Positions 1 through 24,848 of a DNA stretch of 32,150 nucleotides are shown here, in pieces. The notes under the pieces are model-generated. The model was not told the DNA's origin, did no database searches, and saw nothing but the letters and a program-made list of their open reading frames with translations. How positions within the stretch are numbered: the first letter of the stretch is position 1; the number at the start of each line of letters is the position of its first letter. The stretch comes from Acidimicrobiia bacterium (GTDB lineage Bacteria; Actinomycetota; Acidimicrobiia; Spongiisociales; SHLN01), in NCBI GenBank assembly GCA_041619515.1, contig JBFKDW010000029.1:1-32150 (forward strand), read 5' to 3'. Made by a program: the position numbers and the translations under genes.

Positions 1-1069
1 CAGACGCCGCCGGCGGTGGTGGTGTCGCCACCGTCGTCGACGTAGTGCTCGTCGTCGTAACCACTGCAGTCGTCGTCGTCGTCGTCGTGGACGGCGCCAC
101 CGTCGTCGACGTCGTCGAAGACGGCACCGTCGAAGACGTCGTCGGAGGCGCCACCGACGTAGTCGTCGTCGTTGCCGGACGGGCAGTGGTCGACGTCGTT
201 GAGGTCGGAGTGCCAGCGGTGGTCGAGGTGGTCGTGGACGAATCCGGTGGATCGAACCTGAGCGAGGCGACCGGTTCGCCGACAATCGAGGCGGACACCG
301 GGCTCCAACCCGAGAGCCCGAAGGGGGTTTCGCGAACGGGAGCCAGGAAGTAGTTGGCTTCGGCGATGAACACGATCCCGTCTCGGGGCCGGAACGCTGC
401 AACCGTGTCGGTCCCGTCGGCGTTCCAGTCACCCAGGAAGACTTGATCGCCGTACACGCCGTAGGGGAACTCGCTGTGGGCGATGCCGGTGCTCAATTCG
501 TTGCGGAGATACACCGAAGCGGTGGAAGGTCGGTACACCCCGACGCCGTCTACACCATCGCCGTCGAAATCTCCGGCGATCGGCCGGTCGGTGGGCACCC
601 CGAAGAAGAACCGGTAGTCGGCATCGTGGGCGAGGAGGCGGTTGGACACGTAGAACTGGCTCTCGGATGGTCGGTAGATGGCGATCGTGTCGCAGCCGTC
701 GCCGTTCCAGTCGCCCGCCAGCGCGGAATCTCCCGGAACCCCGATGTACCACTCCACATCCGGTTCGCCGGAGGAATTGTCGTTGCGGAAGGACGCCCGC
801 CCCGACGTGGGGTCGTAGACGCCGATCGTGTCCAATCCATCGCAATCCCAGTCGCCGAGCAGAGGGGTGTCGCCCGGCTCGCCAAACGACACGGTGTGCA
901 CGGAGTCCTTGTCATAGCGGAGGTGCCATTCGGCCGTGGCGGCATTGAACATCGCAATCGGGGAGTGGTCCGGGGTCGGGCTGGCCGACGCTCCCGGAAT
1001 CAGCAGGGCAGTGAGGGCTACTGCCAGAGCGGTGATCACCCACCGTGGTTCGCTGTGTGCCGCAACCAT
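1..1069 (-). CDS. Secreted protein with four FG-GAP-like GD(W/F)xxDG repeats and a long Thr/Ser/Pro-rich linker; 3' end runs off the window
   Basis: Not in the ORF track (no stop inside the window); translated by hand. ATG 1069 follows GAGGAG. Signal-like MVAAHSEPRWVITALAVALTALLIPGASA, then GDWDCDGLDT, GDWNGDGCDT, GDFDGDGVDG, GDWNADGTDT, then STTTSTT...TTTTTTTAVVTTTSTT. The frame is open to position 2. Confidence 0.9.
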   Translation of the reverse strand, partial: MVAAHSEPRWVITALAVALTALLIPGASASPTPDHSPIAMFNAATAEWHLRYDKDSVHTVSFGEPGDTPLLGDWDCDGLDTIGVYDPTSGRASFRNDNSSGEPDVEWYIGVPGDSALAGDWNGDGCDTIAIYRPSESQFYVSNRLLAHDADYRFFFGVPTDRPIAGDFDGDGVDGVGVYRPSTASVYLRNELSTGIAHSEFPYGVYGDQVFLGDWNADGTDTVAAFRPRDGIVFIAEANYFLAPVRETPFGLSGWSPVSASIVGEPVASLRFDPPDSSTTTSTTAGTPTSTTSTTARPATTTTTSVAPPTTSSTVPSSTTSTTVAPSTTTTTTTAVVTTTSTTSTTVATPPPPAAS

Positions 1070-1219: not shown

Positions 1220-1846
1220 TCAGCTGCCGTGAGCCTCGTCAGTGCCGAGAAACTCGGGCATCGTCGCATGGTCTCCTGATCCGATCCCGCGCCTCGTCAC
1301 GACCTCCCGCACCGTCATCAGCAGGATCTTCACATCGAGCAGCGGGCCCCAGTTGTCGACGTACCAGACGTCGTGGGCGAACTTCTCGGGCCAGGTGAGG
1401 GCGTTGCGGCCATTGACCTGTGCCCATCCGGTGATGCCGGGCTTGCACTCATGGCGCCGCCACTCGGTGGGGTTGTAGCGGTCACGGTATGCCACGGGAA
1501 GCGGTCGTGGGCCCACCAGGCTCATATCCCCCCGCAAGACGTCGAGCAGCTCGGGGAGCTCGTCCAGGCTCAGGGCTCGCAGCATGCGCCCGAGCCTCGT
1601 GAGCCGCTGCTCGTCGGGAAGGAGGTTCCCGTTGCGGTCGCGGCCGTCGGTCATCGTGCGGAACTTGGTGATCCGAAACACCTCGCCATTGAGCCCGATG
1701 CGCTCCTGTCTGAACAGCACAGGAGAGCCGAGACTCACCCGAACGATCAGCGCCAGGATCGCCAGCACCGGCAAGAGGGCCACGCCGACGACGGCGCTGA
1801 GGACTACGTCCATCGAGCGTTTGATCAGTTGCTTGGATGAACCCAT
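1220..1846 (-). CDS. pglC: Small monotopic phosphoglycosyl transferase (Bac_transf), PglC/EpsL-like, 208 aa
   Basis: KRSMD, single hydrophobic helix, QERIG..GEVF, KFRTM, D..RLT, SLDELPE, GDMSLVGPRP, PGITGWAQVNGRN, DVWYVDNW...DVKIL. Confidence 0.92.
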   Translation of the reverse strand: MGSSKQLIKRSMDVVLSAVVGVALLPVLAILALIVRVSLGSPVLFRQERIGLNGEVFRITKFRTMTDGRDRNGNLLPDEQRLTRLGRMLRALSLDELPELLDVLRGDMSLVGPRPLPVAYRDRYNPTEWRRHECKPGITGWAQVNGRNALTWPEKFAHDVWYVDNWGPLLDVKILLMTVREVVTRRGIGSGDHATMPEFLGTDEAHGS

Positions 1847-1923
1847 GGCCTTCCGTACCCGTGGCTACAGTTGTGGATCGCCTCCGCGAACATCCGCCCA
1901 CCCTCACCGCGAGGATTCAGACC

Positions 1924-3062
<1,139 letters not shown>

Positions 3063-3066
<4 letters not shown>

Positions 3067-5471
3067 GCGTCTCGCACCACGTCCGCCAGCGCCGCTTCCA
3101 GCCGGGCGCGAATGAATTCGGGCGCTCCGTCCACCGGGAGTTGGCGCACCAGCGCCGGGTCGGCGCCCGGCACCCCGTAGCGGTTGAGCAGCCCGTGGGG
3201 CCGGTCGATCAATTCCTCGCTCTCGCCCGCCAGCACTTCGTGGAGCTTCTCGCCGGGCCGCAACCCGGTGAAGACGATGTTGGGAGGTTGCCCGGGTCGG
3301 AGTTGTTGCTGGAGTCTCTCGGCCAGCTCGACGATGCGCACCGGATCACCCATCTCCAACACGAACACGTCGCCCCGCCCACCCAGCGCACCTGCCTGAA
3401 CCACGAGCTGGCAGGCTTCCTCGATCGTCATGAAGTAGCGGCTGACCTCCGGGTGGGTCACGGTTATCGGCTCGTTATTGAGAATCTGCTCTCGGAACGT
3501 TGGGATCACCGAACCGTTCGAACCGAGCACATTGCCGAAACGTACCGACATGCACGCGGTCGGCCCTTGCTGGGCGCAGTGCGCGGTCAGCATCTCGCTG
3601 AGTCGCTTCGTCAGCCCGAGCACGTTGATCGGCTCGGCCGCCTTGTCGGTCGACACGTTGACCACCCGGTCGGCTCCAACCGATAGTGCCGCCTCCAGCA
3701 CGTTCAGCGTGCCGATGACGTTGGTTTTGACGGCTTCGCCGGGATGCGATTCCAGGAAGGTGACGTGCTTGCGGGCGGCGGCGTGGAACACGACTTCCGG
3801 CTTGGCCTCCTCGAAGGCAGCCTGCAGGGCGCGGGCGTCGCGAATGTCACACAGGATGAGCTCGTCGGAGTCGAGCAGGGCTCTTCCTTCGAGGGCGAGC
3901 TGCAGCCCGTGCAAGGCGTTCTCGTCGATGTCCAGCTTGAACAACTTCTTGGGGTCGAACTGCTCGATGATGCGGCACAGCACCGATCCGATCGAGCCGC
4001 CTGCGCCCGTCACCAGGACCCGTTTCCCGGTCAGGTAGCCGGCGATGCCGTCGAGGTCGAGGCTCAACTCCTCCCGCGGCAGAAAGTCGGCCAGCGTCAG
4101 ATCCCGAATGTCCGAAGCGGCCACGTCGGTTTCCGCCAGTGCATACTCCGACAGTCGGGGCAGGATGCGCACCTTCAGGTTGGCCCGGTGGCCGATCTCT
4201 GCGATGTCGCGGACGACGGTTCCGGTCGCAGACGGCATCGCGATGAGCAGCACGTCGGCGTTGTAGCGGAACGTGGCAGGGCCGATCGACTCCCGGCCTC
4301 CTACCACCGGCAGCCCGAGCGGGCGGCTTCCATGTTTGGCGTGGTCGTCATCCAAGAAGGCGACGGGGACGGAGTTGGCCTCGGGGTTGCCCCACACCGC
4401 GGCGGCGGCTTTGAGCCCGGCGTCGCCCGCTCCGAACACCAGCAGCCGGTGGGGGCGTTTGTGGGGGGATCGTCCGCTCATCGCGTAGACGGCCCGGGCG
4501 AAGTAGCGGGCACCCAGGGCGGCGATCAGGAAGAATCCGCTCCCTGCCAGGGCGGCGCCGATCGGTAAGGGATCGGCACCCGGGAGCAGTGTTTCGGCCA
4601 ACAGCACCGAGAACACGGCCAGCGTCCCGGTCATGAGCCAGCCCACCTCCTCGTTGGACACGAGCTGCCACCGGCCGCGATAGAGGCCGACCCGGAACCC
4701 CCACAGCAGCTGGACTGCCACCGCGGTCGCGATTCCTACCAGCAGGCCGAACTTGTCAACCTGCGACCATACGAAGTTCTGATGGGCCAACGCCGCAACC
4801 GGAAGGGCCAGTGTCCAGATGACCTGGTCGGTGACTACCAGCCTGATGTGCGGGAATCGCGCCGGCAGCCGGCTGCGCGGTGGACGCGGTTCGTTTGGCT
4901 GTTGTTCCCGCCGCCGGAGTATCACCACGAGTGTCTTGGCAAGGATGCGCAGGTCTGTGCTGAGCGAGAGCTGGTCGATGTATTGGATGTCGTAGTGCAT
5001 GTTGTGCACAAGCTCGCGACCGTCGCCTCGGGCATCGGTCTGCCACAGGCCGGTGATACCGGGGCGAACCAGATGCCGCCGCCGCTGCCACGACTCGAGG
5101 CCGGCGAGCACCTCGGCATCCACCGGGCGGGGGCCGACGAGGCTCATGTGGCCGGAAACCACGTTCCACAGCTGGGGGAGCTCGTCGAGGCTCAAACGCT
5201 GCAACAACCGGCCGAAGCGCCCGGCCCTCCCCGGTAGCTCTGTCCTGAGCCGATACAGCGTGAAGGGCCGCTCGTTGAGCCCGACGCGCGGCTCCCCAAC
5301 CACGGGGCGAGCCCGGAGCACCAGAACCACTGCTGCCATCAGGGAGAGAAGGAGGGGGGCGGTTGCGAGCGCCGCTCCGAGCCCGACTATTCGATCGAGC
5401 AGCGGCTTCCCGAGGCGCGGGTAGATGCCGCCCGGTCCGCCGAGTGAAACGGTCTCGGAGTCCCTGTTCAC
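3063..5471 (-). CDS. Fusion: divergent monotopic PGT + 4-TM/CoA-binding-like region + PglF/CapD-type UDP-GlcNAc 4,6-dehydratase (Polysacc_synt_2), 802 aa
   Basis: N-terminal SLDELPQLWNVVSGHMSLVGPRP and PGITGLWQ; central hydrophobic helices, GLYRGRW, VFGAGDAG, FLDDD; C-terminal VLVTGAGGSIGS, HAAARKHV, STDKA, VRFGNVLGSNGSVIP, RYFMTIEEA, GLRPGEKLHE. The GTG start overlaps the upstream TGA (GTGA, 5468-5471). Confidence 0.92.
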
Positions 5472-8191
5472 AATCGTTCAGCCCGGCCGGGGGGAGTCAC
5501 GCCCCGGGTATCCAGTACCAGGGCGGCGGCGGCGCAGATGTTCTCCACATCGAAGCTGCTGTGGGGCGTGTGGATGACCACGAGGTCGGCGTTTGTCGCA
5601 GCCCCCAGCGGGTCCAGCACCCGCTCGAGCGGTTGACCGTCGACTACGAACTCCGGGACGAGCGGATCGGCGTACACCGGGCGCACGCCGGCCCGCCGCA
5701 AGGCCCGCACCAGTGCCGTAGCCGGGGTCTCCCGGACATCTCCGACGTTGGGCTTGTACGCAACGCCGAGCACGAGAACGGTCGATTCCGACAGTTTCTT
5801 GCCGTCGGACGTCAGCATGGCGGTTGCCCGCCGTGCCACGTAGTCCGGCATGTAGTCGTTGATCTTCTGGGCGAGCTCGATCATTTGGAATTGCGAACCG
5901 AGCTGGCGAACCCGGTACGAGAGGTAGTTGGGGTCGATCGGAATGCAGTGGCCGCCGACCCCCGGTCCCGGGTAAAAGGCTTGGAAGCCGAACGGCTTGG
6001 TGGCGGCCCCGCGAATCGTTTCCCAAATGTCGACCTCCAGCATGTCGCAGAAGATCGCCAGCTCGTTCACCAAGGCGATGTTGACATGCCGATAGGTGTT
6101 CTCGAGCAGCTTGGCCATCTCCGCCTCCCGGGTGCCGGAGAGCACGACGACCGGGGCAAACTTTCGATAGAACTGAGCGGCCCGCTCGGCGGAAGCATCG
6201 TCGAGGCCGCCCACCAGCTTCGGTGTGTTGTGCACTCCCCAGTCGGCGTTGCCGGGATCGATGCGCTCGGGCGAATAGGCGAGATAGAAGTCGATTCCGG
6301 CTGTGAGGCCGGAGCGCTTCTCCAGCACGGGACGCACGACCTCGTCGGTCGTGCCCGGATAGGTGGTGGATTCGAGAACGACGGTCTGGCCCGGGCTCAA
6401 GTGGTCGCCGATTGCCTCAGCGGCGCCCAGCACTGCATTGAGGTCCGGCAGCCCGTCGCGCAGCGGGGTGGGGACGCTAATGGTCACCACGTCCGCCTCG
6501 GCGAGAACCGACGCGTCCGAGGTCGGGGTGAACCCGCTCGAGAGCACGGCGGCCAGCTCCTCGTCGGTGACATCCTCGACATAGCTGGTCCCGGCGAGAA
6601 GCGATGCGATCTTGTCGGGGTCGATGTCGAGCCCGGCCACCCGCAGCCCGGCGTTGCTCGCCCCGACGGCAGCGGTGAGCCCGACGTAGCCGAGGCCGAC
6701 CACCGCCAGATCGAATTCTCGACCGACGGGTGGAGCGGGGCGGGCGGCCGTCTCTCGTTTGTCGAGCTCGTATCGGTACTCGGGGACCGGGGTGGGAGCC
6801 GAGCGGGCGTGTTCCACCAGCAGGCCGGACAGGGACTGGGTAAGGGGTGGGAGCACCTCGACGTGCAGGCCGGCCTCATCCGCCAGTGCGGTGATGCGCG
6901 CGATCTCCCCTGACGGGGCCGACGGCATCGCCACGAGCAGCGAGTCGGCGTCATAGCGCCAGGCCGCCGAGGCGATCGCCGCCCTGGTTCCCACCACCGG
7001 GAGGCCGAGGCGGCGGCTGCCCGTCAATCTCCGGTCATCATCGAGGAACGCCACCGGCTCGGCCGTCGCCGTGGGGTCCTGCAAGAGAGCTTCGACCGTC
7101 TCGATCCCGGCCCGACCGGCACCGAACACGATCAACCGTCGGGCCCGCTGATGAGTCGATCGGTGCTGGCGGGTGTAGGAGGCCCTCGCCACGTACCGGG
7201 CGGCAAACGCGCCGACGACGAAGAATGCTCCGGCTCCCGCCATGGCACCACGCGGCACGAGCGACACGATGAGGGTGGAGGTCAGCACGAGGCCGAGGGT
7301 CGTTAGAGCTGCTCCGCTCGCCAGCCAGCCGGCTTCCTCGAACGAGCCGAGTCGCCAGCGCCCCCGGTAGAGGCCTACCCCGTATCCCCAGGCCAGCTGA
7401 GCGGCCATCGCTGCCAACCAGACCGCAACCATCCGCACCCAATTGACGCTGCCGAATGAGAAGTCGAACCGGGCGTAGACCGACGCCGTGATGGCGATCG
7501 GCCACAGCAGGAGGTCGCTGGCGATGAGGCGAAAGTGGTTGATGTGAACCCATCTGCGGCGGCGCCCGGCCGGCTCGAGATGGCGACCTTCGCGGCGCAG
7601 CGCCCACACGCCCAGCGTGACGGCGAGGATCCGGAGGTCGGTGATCAGTGACAGCTGATCGATGTATTGGATGTCGTAGTGGAGGTTGTCCGACAGGCGC
7701 CGGCCGTCACCCCGGGCTTCGGCCTGCCACAGGCCGGTCAAGCCCGGCTTCACCTCGTGGCGCCGGAGCTGCCAATCCTGCAGCGACGCAGCAGCGGCCG
7801 GGTCGATGGGACGGGGCCCGACCAGGCTCATCTGGCCGAGAACGATGTTCCACAGTTGGGGCAGCTCATCGAGGCTCCAGCGCCGAAGGAAGCTCGCCAC
7901 CTGGCGCCGCCGGCCGCGCAGATCACCGGTGCGACCGGTGCGGATCCGATACAGGTTGAACGGGGCTCCACCCTTGCCGATACGGCGCTCACGTTCGATG
8001 CCGAAACCGCCGAACATGAACCCGGAGACCATCATCATGACGAGAACGAACGGGAGCGTGATGACGCTCGCCACCAGGCCTACTGTGAGGTCGAAGAGCG
8101 GCTTGACGAGCTGTTCGTATGGACCGGCGCGCCGGACAGCCTCGCCACGCCGGGCGGTTGGCGGGACGCCGATTCTGGGCACCTTGCTCAT
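5468..8191 (-). CDS. Fusion: divergent monotopic PGT + 4-TM/CoA-binding-like region + nucleotide-sugar 6-dehydrogenase (WbpA/TviB/WecC-like), 907 aa
   Basis: SLDELPQLWNIVLGQMSLVGPRP, PGLTGLWQ, GLYRGRW, VFGAGRAG, FLDDD; then VVGLGYVG, SVPTP, ESTTYPGTT, SPERIDPGN, AEMAKLLENTYRHVNIA, catalytic-Cys motif PGPGVGGHCIPIDP, GVAYKPNVGDVRETP. Confidence 0.92.
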   Translation of the reverse strand: MSKVPRIGVPPTARRGEAVRRAGPYEQLVKPLFDLTVGLVASVITLPFVLVMMMVSGFMFGGFGIERERRIGKGGAPFNLYRIRTGRTGDLRGRRRQVASFLRRWSLDELPQLWNIVLGQMSLVGPRPIDPAAAASLQDWQLRRHEVKPGLTGLWQAEARGDGRRLSDNLHYDIQYIDQLSLITDLRILAVTLGVWALRREGRHLEPAGRRRRWVHINHFRLIASDLLLWPIAITASVYARFDFSFGSVNWVRMVAVWLAAMAAQLAWGYGVGLYRGRWRLGSFEEAGWLASGAALTTLGLVLTSTLIVSLVPRGAMAGAGAFFVVGAFAARYVARASYTRQHRSTHQRARRLIVFGAGRAGIETVEALLQDPTATAEPVAFLDDDRRLTGSRRLGLPVVGTRAAIASAAWRYDADSLLVAMPSAPSGEIARITALADEAGLHVEVLPPLTQSLSGLLVEHARSAPTPVPEYRYELDKRETAARPAPPVGREFDLAVVGLGYVGLTAAVGASNAGLRVAGLDIDPDKIASLLAGTSYVEDVTDEELAAVLSSGFTPTSDASVLAEADVVTISVPTPLRDGLPDLNAVLGAAEAIGDHLSPGQTVVLESTTYPGTTDEVVRPVLEKRSGLTAGIDFYLAYSPERIDPGNADWGVHNTPKLVGGLDDASAERAAQFYRKFAPVVVLSGTREAEMAKLLENTYRHVNIALVNELAIFCDMLEVDIWETIRGAATKPFGFQAFYPGPGVGGHCIPIDPNYLSYRVRQLGSQFQMIELAQKINDYMPDYVARRATAMLTSDGKKLSESTVLVLGVAYKPNVGDVRETPATALVRALRRAGVRPVYADPLVPEFVVDGQPLERVLDPLGAATNADLVVIHTPHSSFDVENICAAAALVLDTRGVTPPGRAERL

Positions 8192-8236: not shown

Positions 8237-8377
8237 CTCCGTGTTCGCTGTGGATCAGAGTACAGCGGCCGGACGAGTCTCGCGTCCCACACTGTCACGG
8301 ATGTGAGCTCGCTCCCGGGCGATCGCCGGCCCGGAAGAAACCCGATTTCTGAATCCCGAGTTGAATGTCGGAGACCC

Positions 8378-9622
8378 ATGGATCCCTCTCAATCGATCTC
8401 CCGCTGGCCTTCGTGGGCCCTGCCCGCCCTGACGGCCGTCTGGATGGGGTCTTTTGTCTATCTCGGGCTGGCCTCGCGCCTCCCCGACATCCCGGGCCTC
8501 ACCGGTCGCGGTGAATCGGTGGCTTCGTTCGGGCATTTCACGACCACGCTGGTTTTGGCGGTCCTCGTCTACGGCTTGATCCGGTCGCGCGGTCTCGATC
8601 GGCCGACCCTCGGTATTGCCATCTCGTCGGTGGTGGCCGCCACTCTGGCGGGTGGCATCGTCGAGGTGTTGCAGTCGTTTTCTCGGACCCGGAGCCCGCA
8701 GCTGGCGGACCTCTGGTTCGACGGGTTGGGGGCGGTGGTGGGCGTGGGGCTGATGGGGGTCATAGATGCTCGGCCATCGCTCCGGCCGAAGCTGGTGGAG
8801 GGGGCCCACGTTCTGGGAGCGGTGGCCGTTTCTCTGACGATCGCAGCCTTCTTCATATGGCCACCGATCACCCCCGAGGAAGTCGCTGCCTACTGCCCGG
8901 CCGGCGTCGAAGAGCGCCGGGTACCGCGAGTGGAGGTGGAGGCTGGGATCGGCTCGCGTGTGAGCGATGGCCTGCTGGCCCTGTACAGCTTTGAGGACTC
9001 GAGCGACGACGTGTCCGGGGTGGCTCCCGCTCTGAACCTCGTCCTCGAAGGTGGAGCCGCGCTCAGGAACGGGGAGCTTCGCATCACGGGCGTCGACGGT
9101 GTTGCCCGCAGCGCGCGTGCGGCCACCAAGGTGGATGATGCGGTGAAGGTGACTGATTCATTCACGGTCGAGGCATGGGTACGGCCGCGTGATCTGCTCC
9201 AGCGGGGCCCGGCCCGAATTGTCACGGCCTCGGGTAGCACCAGCCTGAGCGACGTCAACTTCCATCTCGGGCAGGAGCGAACCTGCCTCAGCTTTCGGGT
9301 AGCCGCAGGCGGCGGGGCCGCAGAGTGGCTCTTGATCGAGGGGGTGTTCTCTGCTCCACAGCCCGCCTGGCACATCGCAGTGACCTATGAGCGGGGCTCG
9401 ATCGGGGTGTTTGCCGAGGGAGCGCACGTCGAGAGCCGGGTAGTGGAGCCCGGGCCCCTCGACTCGTGGGCTCCCGACTTTCCTCTCTACGTCGGCAACG
9501 AAGCGACTCTCAACCGTCCCTTCAGGGGTGACATTCTGCTGGTTGCCATCTACGGCCGGGCCCTGACTGCCACCGAGATCGCCAGCAACTACGCGGCGGG
9601 AGCCTTGACGAGCCCGCCATGA
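8378..9622 (+). CDS. VanZ-like membrane domain fused to a C-terminal LamG/ConA-like jelly-roll domain, 414 aa
   Basis: About 5 hydrophobic helices with a VanZ-like pattern (GHF..., IVEVLQSF...R..QLADLWFDGLG). LamG motifs LLALYSFED, FTVEAWVRP, WHIAVTY, LYVGN, FRGDI..VAIYGRALTATEI. ATG 8378 follows GGAG. Confidence 0.82.
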   Translation: MDPSQSISRWPSWALPALTAVWMGSFVYLGLASRLPDIPGLTGRGESVASFGHFTTTLVLAVLVYGLIRSRGLDRPTLGIAISSVVAATLAGGIVEVLQSFSRTRSPQLADLWFDGLGAVVGVGLMGVIDARPSLRPKLVEGAHVLGAVAVSLTIAAFFIWPPITPEEVAAYCPAGVEERRVPRVEVEAGIGSRVSDGLLALYSFEDSSDDVSGVAPALNLVLEGGAALRNGELRITGVDGVARSARAATKVDDAVKVTDSFTVEAWVRPRDLLQRGPARIVTASGSTSLSDVNFHLGQERTCLSFRVAAGGGAAEWLLIEGVFSAPQPAWHIAVTYERGSIGVFAEGAHVESRVVEPGPLDSWAPDFPLYVGNEATLNRPFRGDILLVAIYGRALTATEIASNYAAGALTSPP

Positions 9623-17053: not shown

Positions 17054-17635
17054 CTAGACCTGCTCGCGATGGCGGATGAGTGCGGGAAGGGTGCGGAGGA
17101 GAATGCCGAGGTCGGTGAGCAACGACACCCGGTCGAGGTAATCCAAATCGACGGCGAGGTGCTCGGTGAGTATCCGTCCGTCGCCCCGGGCGTGGAGCTG
17201 CCACGGACCGGTCAAGCCTGGTCGCACGAGGTGGCGCCGGGTCACCTCCCCGTTCAGCTCTGAGGCGGTGACCGGATCGAGTGGGCGGGGACCGACCAGA
17301 CTCAGGTGGCCGAGGGTGACATTCCACACCTGCGGGAGCTCATCGAGGCTGGTGCTGCGCAGCCATCTGCTCAGCCGCAGCTGTCTGCCTCGAAGGTCCG
17401 TCTGGTGGTCCTTTCTGGTGTTGACCCGGTACAGGTTGAACCGCCGGCCGTTGCGTCCCATCCGGGCCACCCGTTCGACCGGAGCCCAGCCAAACGCAAC
17501 CCAGGACATTGTGATCAGCACCAGCACCAGCGGAAGGGTGAGGACCGTCAGAACGAGGCCGCCGATGCGGTCCAGAATCGGCTTCGCAAATCGGGCGTAT
17601 GCGCTCAGTTGGGCGCGGTCGAGATCGGTCTTCAT
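17054..17635 (-). CDS. Stand-alone divergent monotopic PGT-like (Bac_transf) protein, ~193 aa
   Basis: KPILD, SLDELPQVWNVTLGHLSLVGPRP, PGLTGPWQLHARGDGR; KFRTM is replaced by RVNTR. ATG 17635 lies 8 nt after TACGGT; ATG 17641 is the alternative start. Confidence 0.88.
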   Translation of the reverse strand: MKTDLDRAQLSAYARFAKPILDRIGGLVLTVLTLPLVLVLITMSWVAFGWAPVERVARMGRNGRRFNLYRVNTRKDHQTDLRGRQLRLSRWLRSTSLDELPQVWNVTLGHLSLVGPRPLDPVTASELNGEVTRRHLVRPGLTGPWQLHARGDGRILTEHLAVDLDYLDRVSLLTDLGILLRTLPALIRHREQV

Positions 17636-17679
17636 TCCCATTCACCGTAGTCAAACCGCGGCCCGTTGACCACTTACCT

Positions 17680-19293: not shown

Positions 19294-21243
19294 CTATGGG
19301 GCGATCGCCCCCGGCTGACCCTGCAGCACGTCTCCCACATACCGGCCGTTCCATTCGCCGATCTCGTCCCGGGCCAGCGCCCCCGCAGGCTCGTCGAGGC
19401 GCCAGTATCCGACCGGCCCGGCCTCGAGCACCAGCTGCCCGTACTCGGCCGGGTCGCCGATGGCGTCGTAGTGATTCTCGATCTCCGCCCGCGACAAGAC
19501 CCGGTCGTAGATGGCGACCTCGTCGATGCCTCCGACAAACCCGGCCCGGTACCCGTTGCCGATGATCCAGGGCAGCGACGACTCGGACGGCGATTTGGTG
19601 ATGGTCTGGGAATTGGTTTGCTCGCCGTCAATGTAGAACCGCAGGAGGCCTCCGCTTCCCGAGACATCACGGGTTATCACCACGTGGCTCCACTCGCCGG
19701 AAGGCAAGATCGTGACCGAGCCAAACCTGAGGTAGGTTCCATCGCAGCAATTGCCTCCAGATTCGCCGTGGAAGTAGTTCAGGCGGCCATCCTCCTCGTG
19801 GATGATCAGTCCTTCCCCGGAGTAGGCCTTCCCCAGGACCACCCGCCGCACAGACAGATCCTCCGGGCGGAGCCACATCTCCAATGTCATGTCGTCCGCC
19901 AGCCCGGGGATGTCGCCGACCTCGACCGATCCGGATAGAAACTCGGCTGCCGAGCCGGGGACCGGCTCCGGCAGCCGGAACGGGAAGGTCATGGTCTCGG
20001 TGGCCGTCAGCTCGAACTCATCGGTGTAGGTCACCGTGATGGCGTACTCGGATCCCGCCAACTCGGCGCCGGACGGAGCCACCGAAATCGGGTTTCCGGA
20101 TTCGATGGCAACCTCGGAAACCTCACAGGCGCCCTCCGCGGTGCACTGACGGGACTCGAGCCGCCACCGCACGTCCCGGGGCTGCACGGGCGCGTCGTCG
20201 ACCACGGCAGCGGCGATTTCCAGCGGGAAGCCATCGGTGATCGTGAGACCGGGCGGAGGTTCGACAATCGCAACTTCGGGCGCAACGCTCCCGGCCCTGG
20301 TCTCGTCCAGCCCGTCCAGGGCCGGGATCGTGTAGCTGGTGATAGCCGGTTGCAGCCCGGACTGCACGATGGTGAGCTCATCCCCTCCGGCTGTCAGGCC
20401 GGTCGCCCCGGTGAGGTCGCCGCCGGCCACCTGGGCGATGCATGGCGCCGAGGCAACCGCCCCTGCCACGGTTTCGCCCGGAGGGCGTTGCCAGATTGCG
20501 ACATCGAACGGGGTCGTCACCGCTATCACCCGGCCGTTCGGGGAAATGTCCGCATCCGTCACCGTGGTGCCGACTCCGGCGACCGCCACCAGATCGCCGA
20601 CTCCGCCTTCAGCCAGCGGCGCCTGGCCACGGAACAGTATGGAACGGCGCCTCCCGGTGGCGATCACGTACAAATCTCCGGTCTCGCCATCCACCATCAG
20701 GGCGGATGCCTGCGGGCGCTGGCCCGACGCCGAGAACCGGAGCACGGTGGGCTCGTCCTCAAGTGCGGGACCGGCGGGGTCCGGTTCTTCGAATCGGAGG
20801 ACCGTGAGCACCTCGGCAGCAAGGTCTGTGTCTTCGAGCACCAGGTACATGAAGTCTTGATCCGCCGTCCGTCCGGGGCCGATCGCCAGATCGACGACCT
20901 CTTCAATCTCAGCGGGAAGGGTGACCGACCCGAGGGGGTCCCCGCCGTCGCGACGCACCGCCCACAACCGGAGCTCACCGCGGACGTCGCCGATGAACCA
21001 GCTCACACCGTCATGACTCCGGCTCGTTGCCAGGCCGATGACACCCGAGATCTCTCCGGTTGCCAGCTCCGAATGCTCGGACGCGAAGGGCTCACCGCAT
21101 CGCACCGCCGCCGGGTCGCCGAGGGTGGTGGTGACAGCCGTGTCCGGTCCGGCCACCTGGCTGCACGCGGCCGCCACCAGCGCCAGCACTACCCCCGGCA
21201 GCAGTCGGCGGAAGCCGACGGCGCTCCTGCGACTACGACTCAC
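19294..21243 (-). CDS. Lipoprotein: beta-propeller-like N-terminal domain, Ig/PKD-like linker and C-terminal LamG-like domain, 649 aa
   Basis: Basic N-terminus plus lipobox-like LVAAAC. LamG motifs TLEMWLRP, WSHVVIT, FYIDG, IIGNG, FVGGIDEVAIYDRVLS, PVGYWRLDE. Confidence 0.85.
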   Translation of the reverse strand: MSRSRRSAVGFRRLLPGVVLALVAAACSQVAGPDTAVTTTLGDPAAVRCGEPFASEHSELATGEISGVIGLATSRSHDGVSWFIGDVRGELRLWAVRRDGGDPLGSVTLPAEIEEVVDLAIGPGRTADQDFMYLVLEDTDLAAEVLTVLRFEEPDPAGPALEDEPTVLRFSASGQRPQASALMVDGETGDLYVIATGRRRSILFRGQAPLAEGGVGDLVAVAGVGTTVTDADISPNGRVIAVTTPFDVAIWQRPPGETVAGAVASAPCIAQVAGGDLTGATGLTAGGDELTIVQSGLQPAITSYTIPALDGLDETRAGSVAPEVAIVEPPPGLTITDGFPLEIAAAVVDDAPVQPRDVRWRLESRQCTAEGACEVSEVAIESGNPISVAPSGAELAGSEYAITVTYTDEFELTATETMTFPFRLPEPVPGSAAEFLSGSVEVGDIPGLADDMTLEMWLRPEDLSVRRVVLGKAYSGEGLIIHEEDGRLNYFHGESGGNCCDGTYLRFGSVTILPSGEWSHVVITRDVSGSGGLLRFYIDGEQTNSQTITKSPSESSLPWIIGNGYRAGFVGGIDEVAIYDRVLSRAEIENHYDAIGDPAEYGQLVLEAGPVGYWRLDEPAGALARDEIGEWNGRYVGDVLQGQPGAIAP

Positions 21244-21498: not shown

Positions 21499-23565
<2,067 letters not shown>

Positions 23566-23612
23566 CCGGTCGCCAACCCGAGCTTGGGGCACCCGTGCGC
23601 GAGACTTGGGCC

Positions 23613-24848
23613 ATGGAGATCACCATCGTGCGCCACGGCCAGTCCGAATCCAACCGCAGCGGGCTGTGGCAGGGGCAAGGCGACTCGCCGCTGTCGGCGG
23701 AGGGACGGATCCAGGCCGGAGCGCTCGCCTACCGTCTGGAAGGGCGAAGCTACGACCTGGTTGTGTCCTCCGATTTGCAGCGGGCAGCCGATACCGCCGG
23801 CCTTCTCGGGCTCGACGCAGAGATCGATCCTGCCTGGCGAGAGCTGCACATCGGCAGCTGGGAGGGCCGTTCGCGGGAGGACGTCATGGCCGACGACGGT
23901 GAAGCCCTGGCCGCTGTGCGCGCCGGCGAGGACGTCAGGCTGGGCGGCGGGGAGAGCTTGCGGGAATTCGACGAGCGAGTCGGCGCCGCATTCGACAAGC
24001 TGCAGGCCCGGCTCGGCCCCGACGATCGTGCCCTGGTCGTCGCCCACGGCGGAGTCATCGCCTCCCTGACTCGCAATGTGCTCGGTCAGGCCAGAAACCT
24101 CTGGACGGGGTTCGGCCCGCTCGAGAACACATCCCTGACACGGTTTCGCGTCTACTCCTCGGGTCCCATGCTCATCAGTTACAACGACGCCACGCATCTC
24201 GGGCCGCTCAACCGCTGGACGCGGGAGCGACACGACGAAGGCAACACGCTGCTGACACTGATACGCCATGGACAGACCGATGCCAACATCGATGATCGCT
24301 GGCAGGGAGTGACCGACGGGGAGCTCACACTGGACGGTCGGGCCCAGGCGGCGGCGCTGGCCGGCTGGTACCCCGGGCTCGACTCCCTCTACTCCTCGCC
24401 GCTGCGCCGAGCCCAGGACACGGCGGCGGCGCTCGGCGAGGTCCTCGGTGTGCCGGTCGTATCCCACGAAGGCGTGATCGAGATGCACCTCGGGGACTGG
24501 GAGGACCTGACCACGCCGACGATTCAGGCCGAATGGGCTCATCTGTGGGAGCAGATCTACCACCAGGGCGAGGATCTTCCGCGCGGATCGACGGGCGAAT
24601 CCCTCACCGAGACGGCGGCGCGGATGGAAGCAGCGCTCCAGGAGCTCGCTCACCGCCACGCCGGTGCCCGGGTAGGGGTCGTGTCGCACGGCGGCGCCAT
24701 CCGCTCCTTCGTGCTCGATCGCCTCGGCATCGGTCACGAGGGACGCGATCGTCTCGCCTTCGTGGACAACACGGCCGTCACCCATGTGGTGATCAGCGAA
24801 GACTCCGCCACCATCGCCGACTACAACGTCGCCCCACACCTCGAGTAG
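23613..24848 (+). CDS. Tandem two-domain histidine phosphatase (phosphoglycerate mutase family), 411 aa
   Basis: Domain 1 IVRHGQSESN...SSDLQRA...VAHGG; domain 2 LIRHGQTDAN...SSPLRRA...VSHGG. Start at ATG 23613. Confidence 0.92.
   Translation: MEITIVRHGQSESNRSGLWQGQGDSPLSAEGRIQAGALAYRLEGRSYDLVVSSDLQRAADTAGLLGLDAEIDPAWRELHIGSWEGRSREDVMADDGEALAAVRAGEDVRLGGGESLREFDERVGAAFDKLQARLGPDDRALVVAHGGVIASLTRNVLGQARNLWTGFGPLENTSLTRFRVYSSGPMLISYNDATHLGPLNRWTRERHDEGNTLLTLIRHGQTDANIDDRWQGVTDGELTLDGRAQAAALAGWYPGLDSLYSSPLRRAQDTAAALGEVLGVPVVSHEGVIEMHLGDWEDLTTPTIQAEWAHLWEQIYHQGEDLPRGSTGESLTETAARMEAALQELAHRHAGARVGVVSHGGAIRSFVLDRLGIGHEGRDRLAFVDNTAVTHVVISEDSATIADYNVAPHLE

Follow-up and report, generated by a model that had tools for sequence, protein, structure and literature searches.

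The window analysed here is the whole 32,150-nucleotide contig JBFKDW010000029.1 (C29) of the Acidimicrobiia bacterium assembly GCA_041619515.1 (genome G000; 3.1 Mb in 146 contigs, 95.65% complete). It contains two tandem genes, A and B, each encoding a phosphoglycosyl transferase (PGT)-like domain, a bundle of four transmembrane helices (4TM), and a domain whose function is unknown (DUF), followed by a nucleotide-sugar enzyme that differs between the two (Table 1). The TGA stop of A and the GTG start of B overlap as GTGA at 5468-5471. Pfam models matched A as Bac_transf (residues 30-195), CoA_binding_3 (287-447), and the N-terminal, central, and C-terminal UDPG_MGDP_dh domains (495-899), and matched B as Bac_transf (22-185) and Polysacc_synt_2 (485-754). 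The CoA_binding_3 match of B was under the cut-off (21.6 versus 25 bits), yet this region aligns with CoA_binding_3 of A. Over their first ≈450 residues, hereafter the cassettes, A and B are 47% identical (445 columns; E 2e-113), with the motifs listed in a preliminary description of this DNA in register. Open reading frames (ORFs), Pfam matches, and this alignment therefore agree with its report of two tandem genes that share a homologous ≈440-residue cassette and overlap by GTGA. Structure models of both proteins show a long N-terminal helix, then four helices, a Rossmann-like DUF, and the enzyme. The model of A has a mean pLDDT (predicted local distance difference test) score of 70 from 22 alignment rows and is poor over residues 147-217, and that of B has a pLDDT of 84 from 34 rows. 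A hydropathy scan found four helices in B and resolved those of A less cleanly. Fold-search matches of the two models were dominated by the C-terminal domains and have no bearing on the cassette. Scans for promoters and terminators gave results at chance level, and no RNA data set was listed among those with matches.

Table 1. Positions of genes A and B, their domains, and other relevant genes in the window
Feature	Position	Strand	Residues	Remarks
Gene A	5468-8191	(-)	907 aa	Divergent PGT, 4TM, DUF (PF13727), UDP-sugar 6-dehydrogenase; open frame
A, monotopic PGT-like domain	7592..8119	(-)	aa 25-200	D34-x12-P47, D108-E109, R103, R127, R160 retained
A, four predicted transmembrane helices	7160..7534	(-)	aa 220-344	From structure model; only partly from hydropathy
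A, DUF / CoA_binding_3	6836..7150	(-)	aa 348-452	Rossmann-like
A, fusion junction	6722..6835	(-)	aa 453-490	Conserved short helix and variable linker replacing PglF-type linker
A, UDP-sugar 6-dehydrogenase domain	5471..6721	(-)		GLGYVG, E607, K694, C749
Gene B	3063-5471	(-)	802 aa	Divergent PGT, 4TM, DUF, PglF/CapD-type UDP-GlcNAc 4,6-dehydratase; open frame
B, PGT-like domain	4908..5426	(-)	aa 16-188	D96-E97, R115, R148 retained
B, 4TM bundle and DUF	4146..4847	(-)	4TM aa 209-331; DUF aa 338-442	
B, PglF-type dehydratase domain	3066..4037	(-)		TGAGGSIG and T608-D609-K610
PglE-type DegT aminotransferase	1837..3066	(+)		Convergent with B; true start probably ~35 codons downstream of ORF start
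Canonical small PGT, PglC (diNAcBac) type	1220..1846	(-)		Likely priming enzyme
Stand-alone loop-short PGT-like gene	17054..17641	(-)	195 aa	Between nhaA and DEAD-box/MZB helicase

Among 120 matches listed of 593 passing, 23 proteins (A of the window included) contain all the domains of A in the same order. The other 22 are 49-72% identical to A, and those close homologues that bear names are labelled Acidimicrobiia bacterium. Genome G004 has the same A-then-B tandem with the identical 4-nucleotide overlap, adjoining the same aminotransferase. The junctions were also compared with contigs, not raw reads, from three sequencing runs out of six with matches, one of which (X1) may be the origin of the assembly itself. 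Contigs of run X6, which belongs to another study, span 6720-6840, 4850-4930, and 5468-5471, and contigs of run X5 span 5468-5471 and the junction between the PGT and transmembrane regions of A, with no insertions or deletions listed in either run. The two junctions singled out for checking in the preliminary description (~6720-6840 and ~4850-4930) are thus genuine, each being bridged by X6 contigs.

Among 13 other genomes of the family, many of them 72-89% complete, G004 and G012 carry an intact A; B was found in G002, G004, G010 (twice), and G012. Among 400 genomes of the class, with four candidates scored per genome, the full cassette appeared only in G004 and G247. The two genes are not always found together. 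G247 (93% complete) has A without B and without any PglF match, G002 and G010 contain B but no intact A, and in G012 A and B lie on different contigs with other neighbours. Contig C75 of G010 (L202:10559-10960) holds, directly upstream of an intact B, a decayed remnant of the dehydrogenase end of A.

The enzymes at the C-termini of A and B both look intact. A scored 403 bits against TIGR03026 (cut-off 190) and remained below the cut-offs of the specific equivalogs TviB (207 versus 592) and WecC (230 versus 459), in a model list that does not include WbpA. The three dehydrogenase domains of A are all present with the nicotinamide adenine dinucleotide (NAD) motif and the catalytic Lys and Cys; the roles of these residues, including GLGYVG, E607, K694, and C749, are those that we take to be general for the family. 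The NAD motif, EMAK, and GGHC occur in 23/23 homologues, and the closest solved relatives are N-acetylmannosamine- and N-acetylgalactosamine-type dehydrogenases. The dehydratase domain of B matched Campylobacter jejuni PglF (E 4e-67; fold Z 41.5, root-mean-square deviation 2.1, 332 residues aligned). Its GxxGxxG and Thr-Asp-Lys motifs are kept in 14/14 sequences, and Leu occupies the position of PglF Met405. Judged by sequence, A is predicted to make a uronic-acid donor and B a 4-keto-6-deoxy donor at the inner membrane face.

Phylogenetic analysis placed the 4TM-DUF regions of A and B amid PglF proteins from the same order that lack a fusion, and placed the fused PGT domains nearest to an order-wide canonical small PGT, found on contig C15 of G000. 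Protein P0130 is a fusion that still carries a canonical C15-like PGT. The PGT tree was a quick one with a midpoint root, and its direction was inferred from canonical motifs in the outgroups. In a quick cassette tree, the 23 A cassettes formed one group inside the B-type cassettes (Shimodaira-Hasegawa-like approximate likelihood ratio test, SH-aLRT, 93), and the A group had a support of 96 in a tree of the 4TM-DUF only. This nesting supports the earlier proposal that a PGT-4TM-DUF-PglF gene was duplicated and that one copy now carries a dehydrogenase. The swap point lies directly after the DUF, and the dehydrogenase domains of the A proteins form one clade (99) with that of P0025, described below. 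A local or recent duplication is not supported by the cassette trees, nor by an approximately unbiased test on a 20-row tree, where forcing the cassettes of the window to be sisters was rejected (p-AU 5.5e-45); moreover, A and B occur apart. The window genes are ≈70-76% identical to their own orthologues versus 47% to each other, and four-fold degenerate sites of the two cassettes match at only 33/79. Since the cassettes are not sisters and their four-fold sites match so rarely, the duplication is older than the divergence of the genera and, with G247 considered, probably also than that of the families. Gene conversion between A and B was also considered; the longest identical DNA run is 23 nucleotides (the HYDIQYID codons), which, with saturated third positions, is too short to call. 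We conclude that A and B are two old paralogous fusions, which share an N-terminal membrane cassette and carry different, intact-looking enzymes. Their origin may be reconstructed in three steps: an order-wide small PGT of the C15 type would have been fused ahead of an ordinary 4TM-DUF-PglF protein, a state that P0130 appears to keep; the fused PGT would then have lost its donor-binding side; and the gene for this fusion would have been duplicated, one copy gaining a dehydrogenase just after the DUF.

We audited the PGT-like heads residue by residue, with the numbering of Campylobacter concisus PglC transferred through a gap-free alignment with the PglC-type protein of the window. In PglC, Lys59, Arg88, and Arg111 are reported to orient the substrate (PMC12802240), Arg88 and Arg145 to bind the lipid phosphate, with minimal activity of an R88Q variant, and loop 61-81 to close upon ligand binding (PMC10519829); a predicted uracil clamp consists of Phe43, Met63, and Arg79 (PMC12550135). 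Controls were 146 PGT domains that passed a length filter from 160 pattern-fetched loci, and 52 large PGTs chosen without a DNA pattern. Lys59 was present in 146/146 background domains versus 0/23 A and 3/13 close B proteins, Met63 in 144/146 versus 0/23 and 0/13, Phe or Tyr43 in 144/146 versus 0/23 and 0/13, and the RxTxxG motif in 137/146 versus 0/23 and 2/13; the audited sequences are kin, and these counts are not independent events. The Lys59-Asp93 spacing has a background median of 47 and minimum of 28, compared to 23-29 in A and 22-28 in close B proteins. It is 26 in A and 22 in B of the window and 34 in PglC, which makes the mobile loop 8-12 residues shorter, and the loop is conserved in neither sequence nor length within A or within B. 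Lys59 is replaced by Arg in the window proteins (Arg82 in A, Arg74 in B). Arg88 is kept in A (R103) and in 12/13 close B proteins and is Gln91 in B of the window. The large PGTs had Asp-Glu in 52/52 and KFRxM in 50/52, and all 21 distant PGT fusions had both Lys59 and Met63.

Compared to C. concisus PglC, the fused domains keep the DX12P re-entrant helix, the Asp-Glu dyad, GPRP, and Arg145, and lack Arg8, Phe43, Lys59, Met63, RxTxxG, the GLLLP loop, and the C-terminal tail. Among the A proteins, D11 and P24 of the re-entrant helix are each kept in 23/23, and none of the 36 fused domains departs from Arg112, Arg145, or GPR. Of the A proteins, 4/23 have a broken dyad, compared to 0/52 large PGTs. 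Because the lost sites are Lys59, Phe43, Met63, and the loop, their published roles imply that the losses are mainly on the nucleotide side. Substitution rates were compared between G000 and G004, which show identities of 69% and 73% in the two fused PGT domains and of 86% in the canonical C15-type PGT. The ratios of nonsynonymous to synonymous rates (dN/dS) were 0.23 and 0.19 for the fused PGTs and 0.08 for the C15 type; the dehydrogenase gave 0.14, PglF 0.10, and the 4TM bundle 0.21, which is like the ≈0.2 of the PGT-like domain; with dS near 1, these values are rough. The idea in the preliminary description that the fused PGT is a working lipid-loading enzyme is doubtful, since Lys59, Phe43, and Met63 are missing together with a large part of the mobile loop, Arg88 is replaced by Gln in B, and a canonical PGT is encoded separately alongside.

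The loop-short domain also occurs outside the fusions. The stand-alone gene of the window (Table 1) lies beside nhaA in 4/4 other genomes of the genus that were read, with 65-70% identity; its dN/dS of 0.20-0.28 in three pairs indicates purifying selection, and it has its own conserved loop, TRxDxQTDLRGR, in 5/5 genomes read. A tandem PGT-PGT protein is encoded on contig C82 of G000 (C82:2311-3627; L234:2311-3627) and also in G004 and G010; its N-terminal domain has Arg59, a retained Met63, and a short loop, and its C-terminal domain is canonical. Protein P0011 bears an additional, more decayed PGT copy in front.

We propose, with a probability of roughly 0.6, that A and B are precursor enzymes tethered to the membrane and likely regulated by nucleotides, whose PGT-like head does not prime glycan synthesis. 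B would convert UDP-N-acetylglucosamine (UDP-GlcNAc) to a 4-keto-6-deoxy sugar, PglE would aminate it, and the separate PglC would load the bacillosamine-type sugar onto polyprenyl phosphate, starting the glycan; A would oxidise a UDP-N-acetylhexosamine (UDP-HexNAc) to a uronic acid. The 4TM-DUF would hold both enzymes at the membrane and may act as a sensor of uridine nucleotides. Such sensing has been proposed for WbaP, whose DUF mediates dimerisation and is stabilised by uridine mono-, di-, and triphosphate (UMP, UDP, and UTP) (PMC10942596). The head would provide a further anchor, with polyprenyl phosphate or a lipid-linked intermediate as its ligand; a lipid-binding anchor is its most likely role because it keeps the re-entrant helix, the metal site formed by Asp-Glu, and the greater part of the basic side for the lipid phosphate. 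This proposal is supported by P0025, in which a sister dehydrogenase sits on a 4TM-DUF without any PGT, and by a separate PGT near six of the eight fusion loci read. This is a small PGT bearing K-[FLI]-R-T-M in G000, in G004, on C274 of G012, and on C75 and C70 of G010, and a polytopic WecA-type enzyme in G247.

Several observations weigh against this proposal. Both window proteins retain DX12P, the Asp-Glu dyad, Arg112, Arg145, and Asp169, and the change of Lys59 to Arg, found in 23/23 A proteins, is conservative. The loss of Phe43 alone says little, since the C15-type ancestor mostly has Leu43. An Arg stands in the Arg79 column of both window proteins, in a column made uncertain by the shortened loop, and the uracil clamp is itself a Chai-1 prediction. 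The 146 background domains were fetched by patterns covering the dyad and GPRP, which biases this control at both. Selection on the fused PGT domains is purifying. Between G012 and G010, a pair whose wrongly bordered 4TM and DUF rows were excluded, dN/dS was 0.27 for the neighbouring small PGT, 0.08 for the fused PGT, and 0.03 for the C15 type, and because the neighbouring small PGT exceeds the fused one, lost activity is not proven by dN/dS alone. The careful 20-row tree gave the A group a support of just 81/76. The two fusion loci at which no separate PGT was seen lie on contigs of 6 kb, and a WbpD-like match was found in 1/5 genomes tested, with none in G004, G012, and G247.

A bolder extension, which we put forward only tentatively, is that the loop-short domain is a new half-enzyme class of monotopic PGTs (monoPGTs), in which the lipid-phosphate and metal side is kept and the UDP-sugar side is dropped. 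It would be a portable module, found attached to PglF or to a 6-dehydrogenase, by itself, and in a milder form before a canonical PGT. Its task would be to detect polyprenyl phosphate that is free, or to cleave lipid-diphosphate sugars that have stalled, and so to tie precursor synthesis to carrier supply. If this were true, A would be the first dehydrogenase under 4TM-DUF control of the WbaP/PglF type.

The strongest competitor, which we nevertheless consider doubtful, corresponds to the channelling model of the preliminary description. The fused PGTs would be active transferases with a remodelled donor site, using the product of their own enzyme (the 4-keto sugar in B, the uronic acid in A) or a non-uridine donor, and would start glycans other than those primed by PglC. 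The retained catalytic residues and Arg59 listed above would be expected of an active enzyme, as would a dN/dS of 0.19-0.28 and the conserved loop of the stand-alone copy. Published work adds that the small PGTs WreU and WbfU use UDP-4-keto sugars (PMC11257628) and that loop variation tracks the substrate (PMC10186338). However, the loop of the fused domains is not conserved within A or B, the dyad is lost in 4/23 A proteins, B of the window has the R88Q change, and the fused domains evolve at 2-3 times the rate of the canonical paralogue. The separate PGTs at 6/8 loci and the PGT-free P0025 likewise argue against active transferases.

That the cassettes are chiefly pairing modules, bringing A and B into a heteromer via the 4TM-DUF and balancing two pathways that draw on UDP-GlcNAc, is improbable as the principal role, and is compatible with the reading that we prefer. 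WbaP dimerises through its DUF and helix bundle (PMC10942596), the A/B overlap of 4 nucleotides recurs in G000 and G004, and a remnant of A precedes B in G010. On the other side stand A without a PglF match in G247, B without an intact A in G002 and G010, the separate contigs of G012, and the two structure models, neither of which has a clear WbaP-type hairpin after the DUF, although these are models of monomers only. The case of G247, where A occurs and PglF gave no match, makes it unlikely that A and B obligatorily form a heteromer.

We give slightly less credence still to the view that the PGT-like domain is a vestige, which merely co-folds into the membrane and binds nothing specific, so that the fusions act as an ordinary PglF and a membrane-bound dehydrogenase. 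Such a role would be in line with a dN/dS equal to that of the 4TM bundle, the dyad losses in A, the extra decayed PGT of P0011, the decayed A upstream of B in G010, and the habit of the dehydrogenase family to fuse with many partners. It fits poorly with a syntenic stand-alone copy under purifying selection in five genomes, with the invariance of Arg112, Arg145, and GPR in all 36 fused domains, and with a related domain, with Lys59 changed to Arg, that heads the tandem PGT-PGT protein of G000 (C82), G004, and G010. Finally, assembly or frameshift artefacts, for which one could cite an assembly in 146 contigs and the comparison with contigs rather than raw reads, are refuted by the 22 homologues with the architecture of A, the tandem pair of G004, and the contigs of other studies that cross the junctions without insertions or deletions, and have a negligible chance of explaining the fusions.

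Each domain of A and B is known. Large monoPGTs (Salmonella enterica WbaP, Escherichia coli WcaJ, and Myxococcus xanthus EpsZ) contain the same blocks: a four-helix bundle, a DUF (PF13727), and a monoPGT core (PMC10942596, PMC12802240). In A and B this order is permuted, with the PGT N-terminal and an extra enzyme after the DUF; their 4TM-DUF descends from PglF, and in their PGT Lys59 and Met63 are missing, as is a good part of the loop. The nearest Atlas clusters are of the large-monoPGT kind, at only 0.78. From ≈residue 205, B is a complete 4TM-DUF-dehydratase like C. jejuni PglF and Staphylococcus aureus CapD, to which it adds the N-terminal PGT-like domain. A has the same three-domain family fold and motifs as WbpA, TviB, WecC, and Cap5O, and differs in carrying a 490-residue membrane cassette; the UDP-HexNAc 6-dehydrogenases known to us are soluble single enzymes. 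Neisseria PglB is an example of the bifunctional monoPGTs. A and B likewise join a monoPGT core to a sugar-modifying enzyme, as in that class (PMC11257628, PMC10186338). The distant PGT fusions contain unrelated canonical PGTs, unlike the stripped PGT found here, and in A the dehydrogenase is joined via the 4TM-DUF. Our literature search, which did not extend to the main monoPGT fusion catalogue (O'Toole 2021) and its supplements, found no description of a 4TM-DUF dehydrogenase or of a loop-short PGT subfamily. The architecture of A, which the preliminary description did not recognise, thus also has no published description that we found within this scope, and its novelty in print is not proven.

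The 4TM-DUF shared by large PGTs and PglF is called puzzling in the WbaP structure paper, in which feedback by uridine nucleotides is proposed (PMC10942596). The dehydrogenase of A would be a third enzyme class with the WbaP/PglF module, and because it is easily assayed, the feedback idea could be tested by following reduced NAD (NADH). The lineage also offers a natural monoPGT series: canonical (C15 type, P0130), Lys59-to-Arg (C82), loop-short, and dyad-broken. This series tests the predicted UDP-binding pose, and could yield a monoPGT pseudoenzyme or a lipid-carrier sensor.

A profile of 22 A proteins searched against 1.84 billion representatives matched, among 150 listed, a single cluster end to end (P0012; clusters at 50% identity) and one protein, P0025, over everything from the 4TM on. 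Of the remaining long or N-extended matches, six were checked and had other partners or none. P0025 is a single 697-residue Logan protein with a 4TM-DUF-dehydrogenase order, no PGT, and a 4TM-DUF unrelated to that of A; a second search yielded no further proteins of this kind among 120 listed. Pattern scans of metagenome and genome contigs gave no fusion among the matches listed, which were all ordinary PGTs. The architecture of B is commoner: the order PGT, 4TM-DUF, PglF was found in 35/37 proteins examined, including those of Pseudonocardia acaciae and of a group with a Chloroflexota member. Because the PGT domains of these distant fusions fall in other parts of the PGT tree, the PGT-PglF fusion arose more than once. 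Eight proteins of 1,100-1,300 residues (P0132-P0137, P0139, and P0140) are 4TM-DUF-PglF-PGT-aminotransferase fusions, with a PglC-type PGT and a DegT aminotransferase according to their Pfam listing, and one of them is labelled Actinomycetota. Three proteins join a PGT to a dehydrogenase without a 4TM-DUF, an arrangement that occurs in Lottiidibacillus. The architecture of A is rare, limited to uncultured genomes, and assembled from domains that are all known, and comparable fusions have arisen in other places. The dehydrogenase family of A is also fused to many other partners, including ABC transporters (P0103, P0112, P0357), and P0092, P0106, P0118, and P0120 carry insertions that, from their Pfam accessions, we take to be inteins or LAGLIDADG domains.

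Next to gene B, the PglE-type aminotransferase has 1o61 and 4ztc as its best solved relatives, both presumably PglE. The PglC-type gene encodes K59, M63, R79, R88, D93-E94, and GNLLP, and its aromatic box is complete (Y118, Y122, W150, F154, and F197). Five such aromatic residues with a GLLLP-like loop are described as the signature of N,N'-diacetylbacillosamine (diNAcBac) use (PMC10186338). Together with B, these genes account for three of four bacillosamine steps in the window; for PglD, no PF17836 match was found in the 95.65% complete genome. G000 encodes two other dehydrogenases of the family, one TuaD/Ugd-like and one of another subfamily, and A is the only WbpA/WecC-like dehydrogenase found in it. 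Contig C106 of G000 (L232:756-3651) carries a WbpB/D/E-like trio, glycosyltransferases, and a Wzy_C gene, with no 6-dehydrogenase on the contig. The trio has as relatives 3q2k and 3mqg, which we take to be WlbA and WlbB. A is the likeliest first enzyme for this trio and could feed it. A conserved link of A to a WbpB/D/E pathway was rejected, because three other A-bearing genomes have no WbpD-like match, and the proposed connection is limited to G000. At other loci, a WecB 2-epimerase gene accompanies the fusions in G004, and an SDR-type (short-chain dehydrogenase/reductase) gene lies behind A in G012 and G247.

Wzy_C genes were also noted on contigs C82 and C15 of G000. Directly behind PglC, positions 1-1069 (-) encode a protein predicted to be secreted, in which GDWxxDG motifs recur and a long region rich in Thr and Ser extends past the end of the contig; it has no Pfam match and is a possible O-glycosylation target. 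Elsewhere in the window, 8303-9622 (+) encodes a VanZ-like membrane domain with LamG and 19294-21243 (-) a second LamG protein, both with orthologues in G004, and an ORF at 23202-24848 (+) contains two histidine-phosphatase domains and is 78% conserved in G004.

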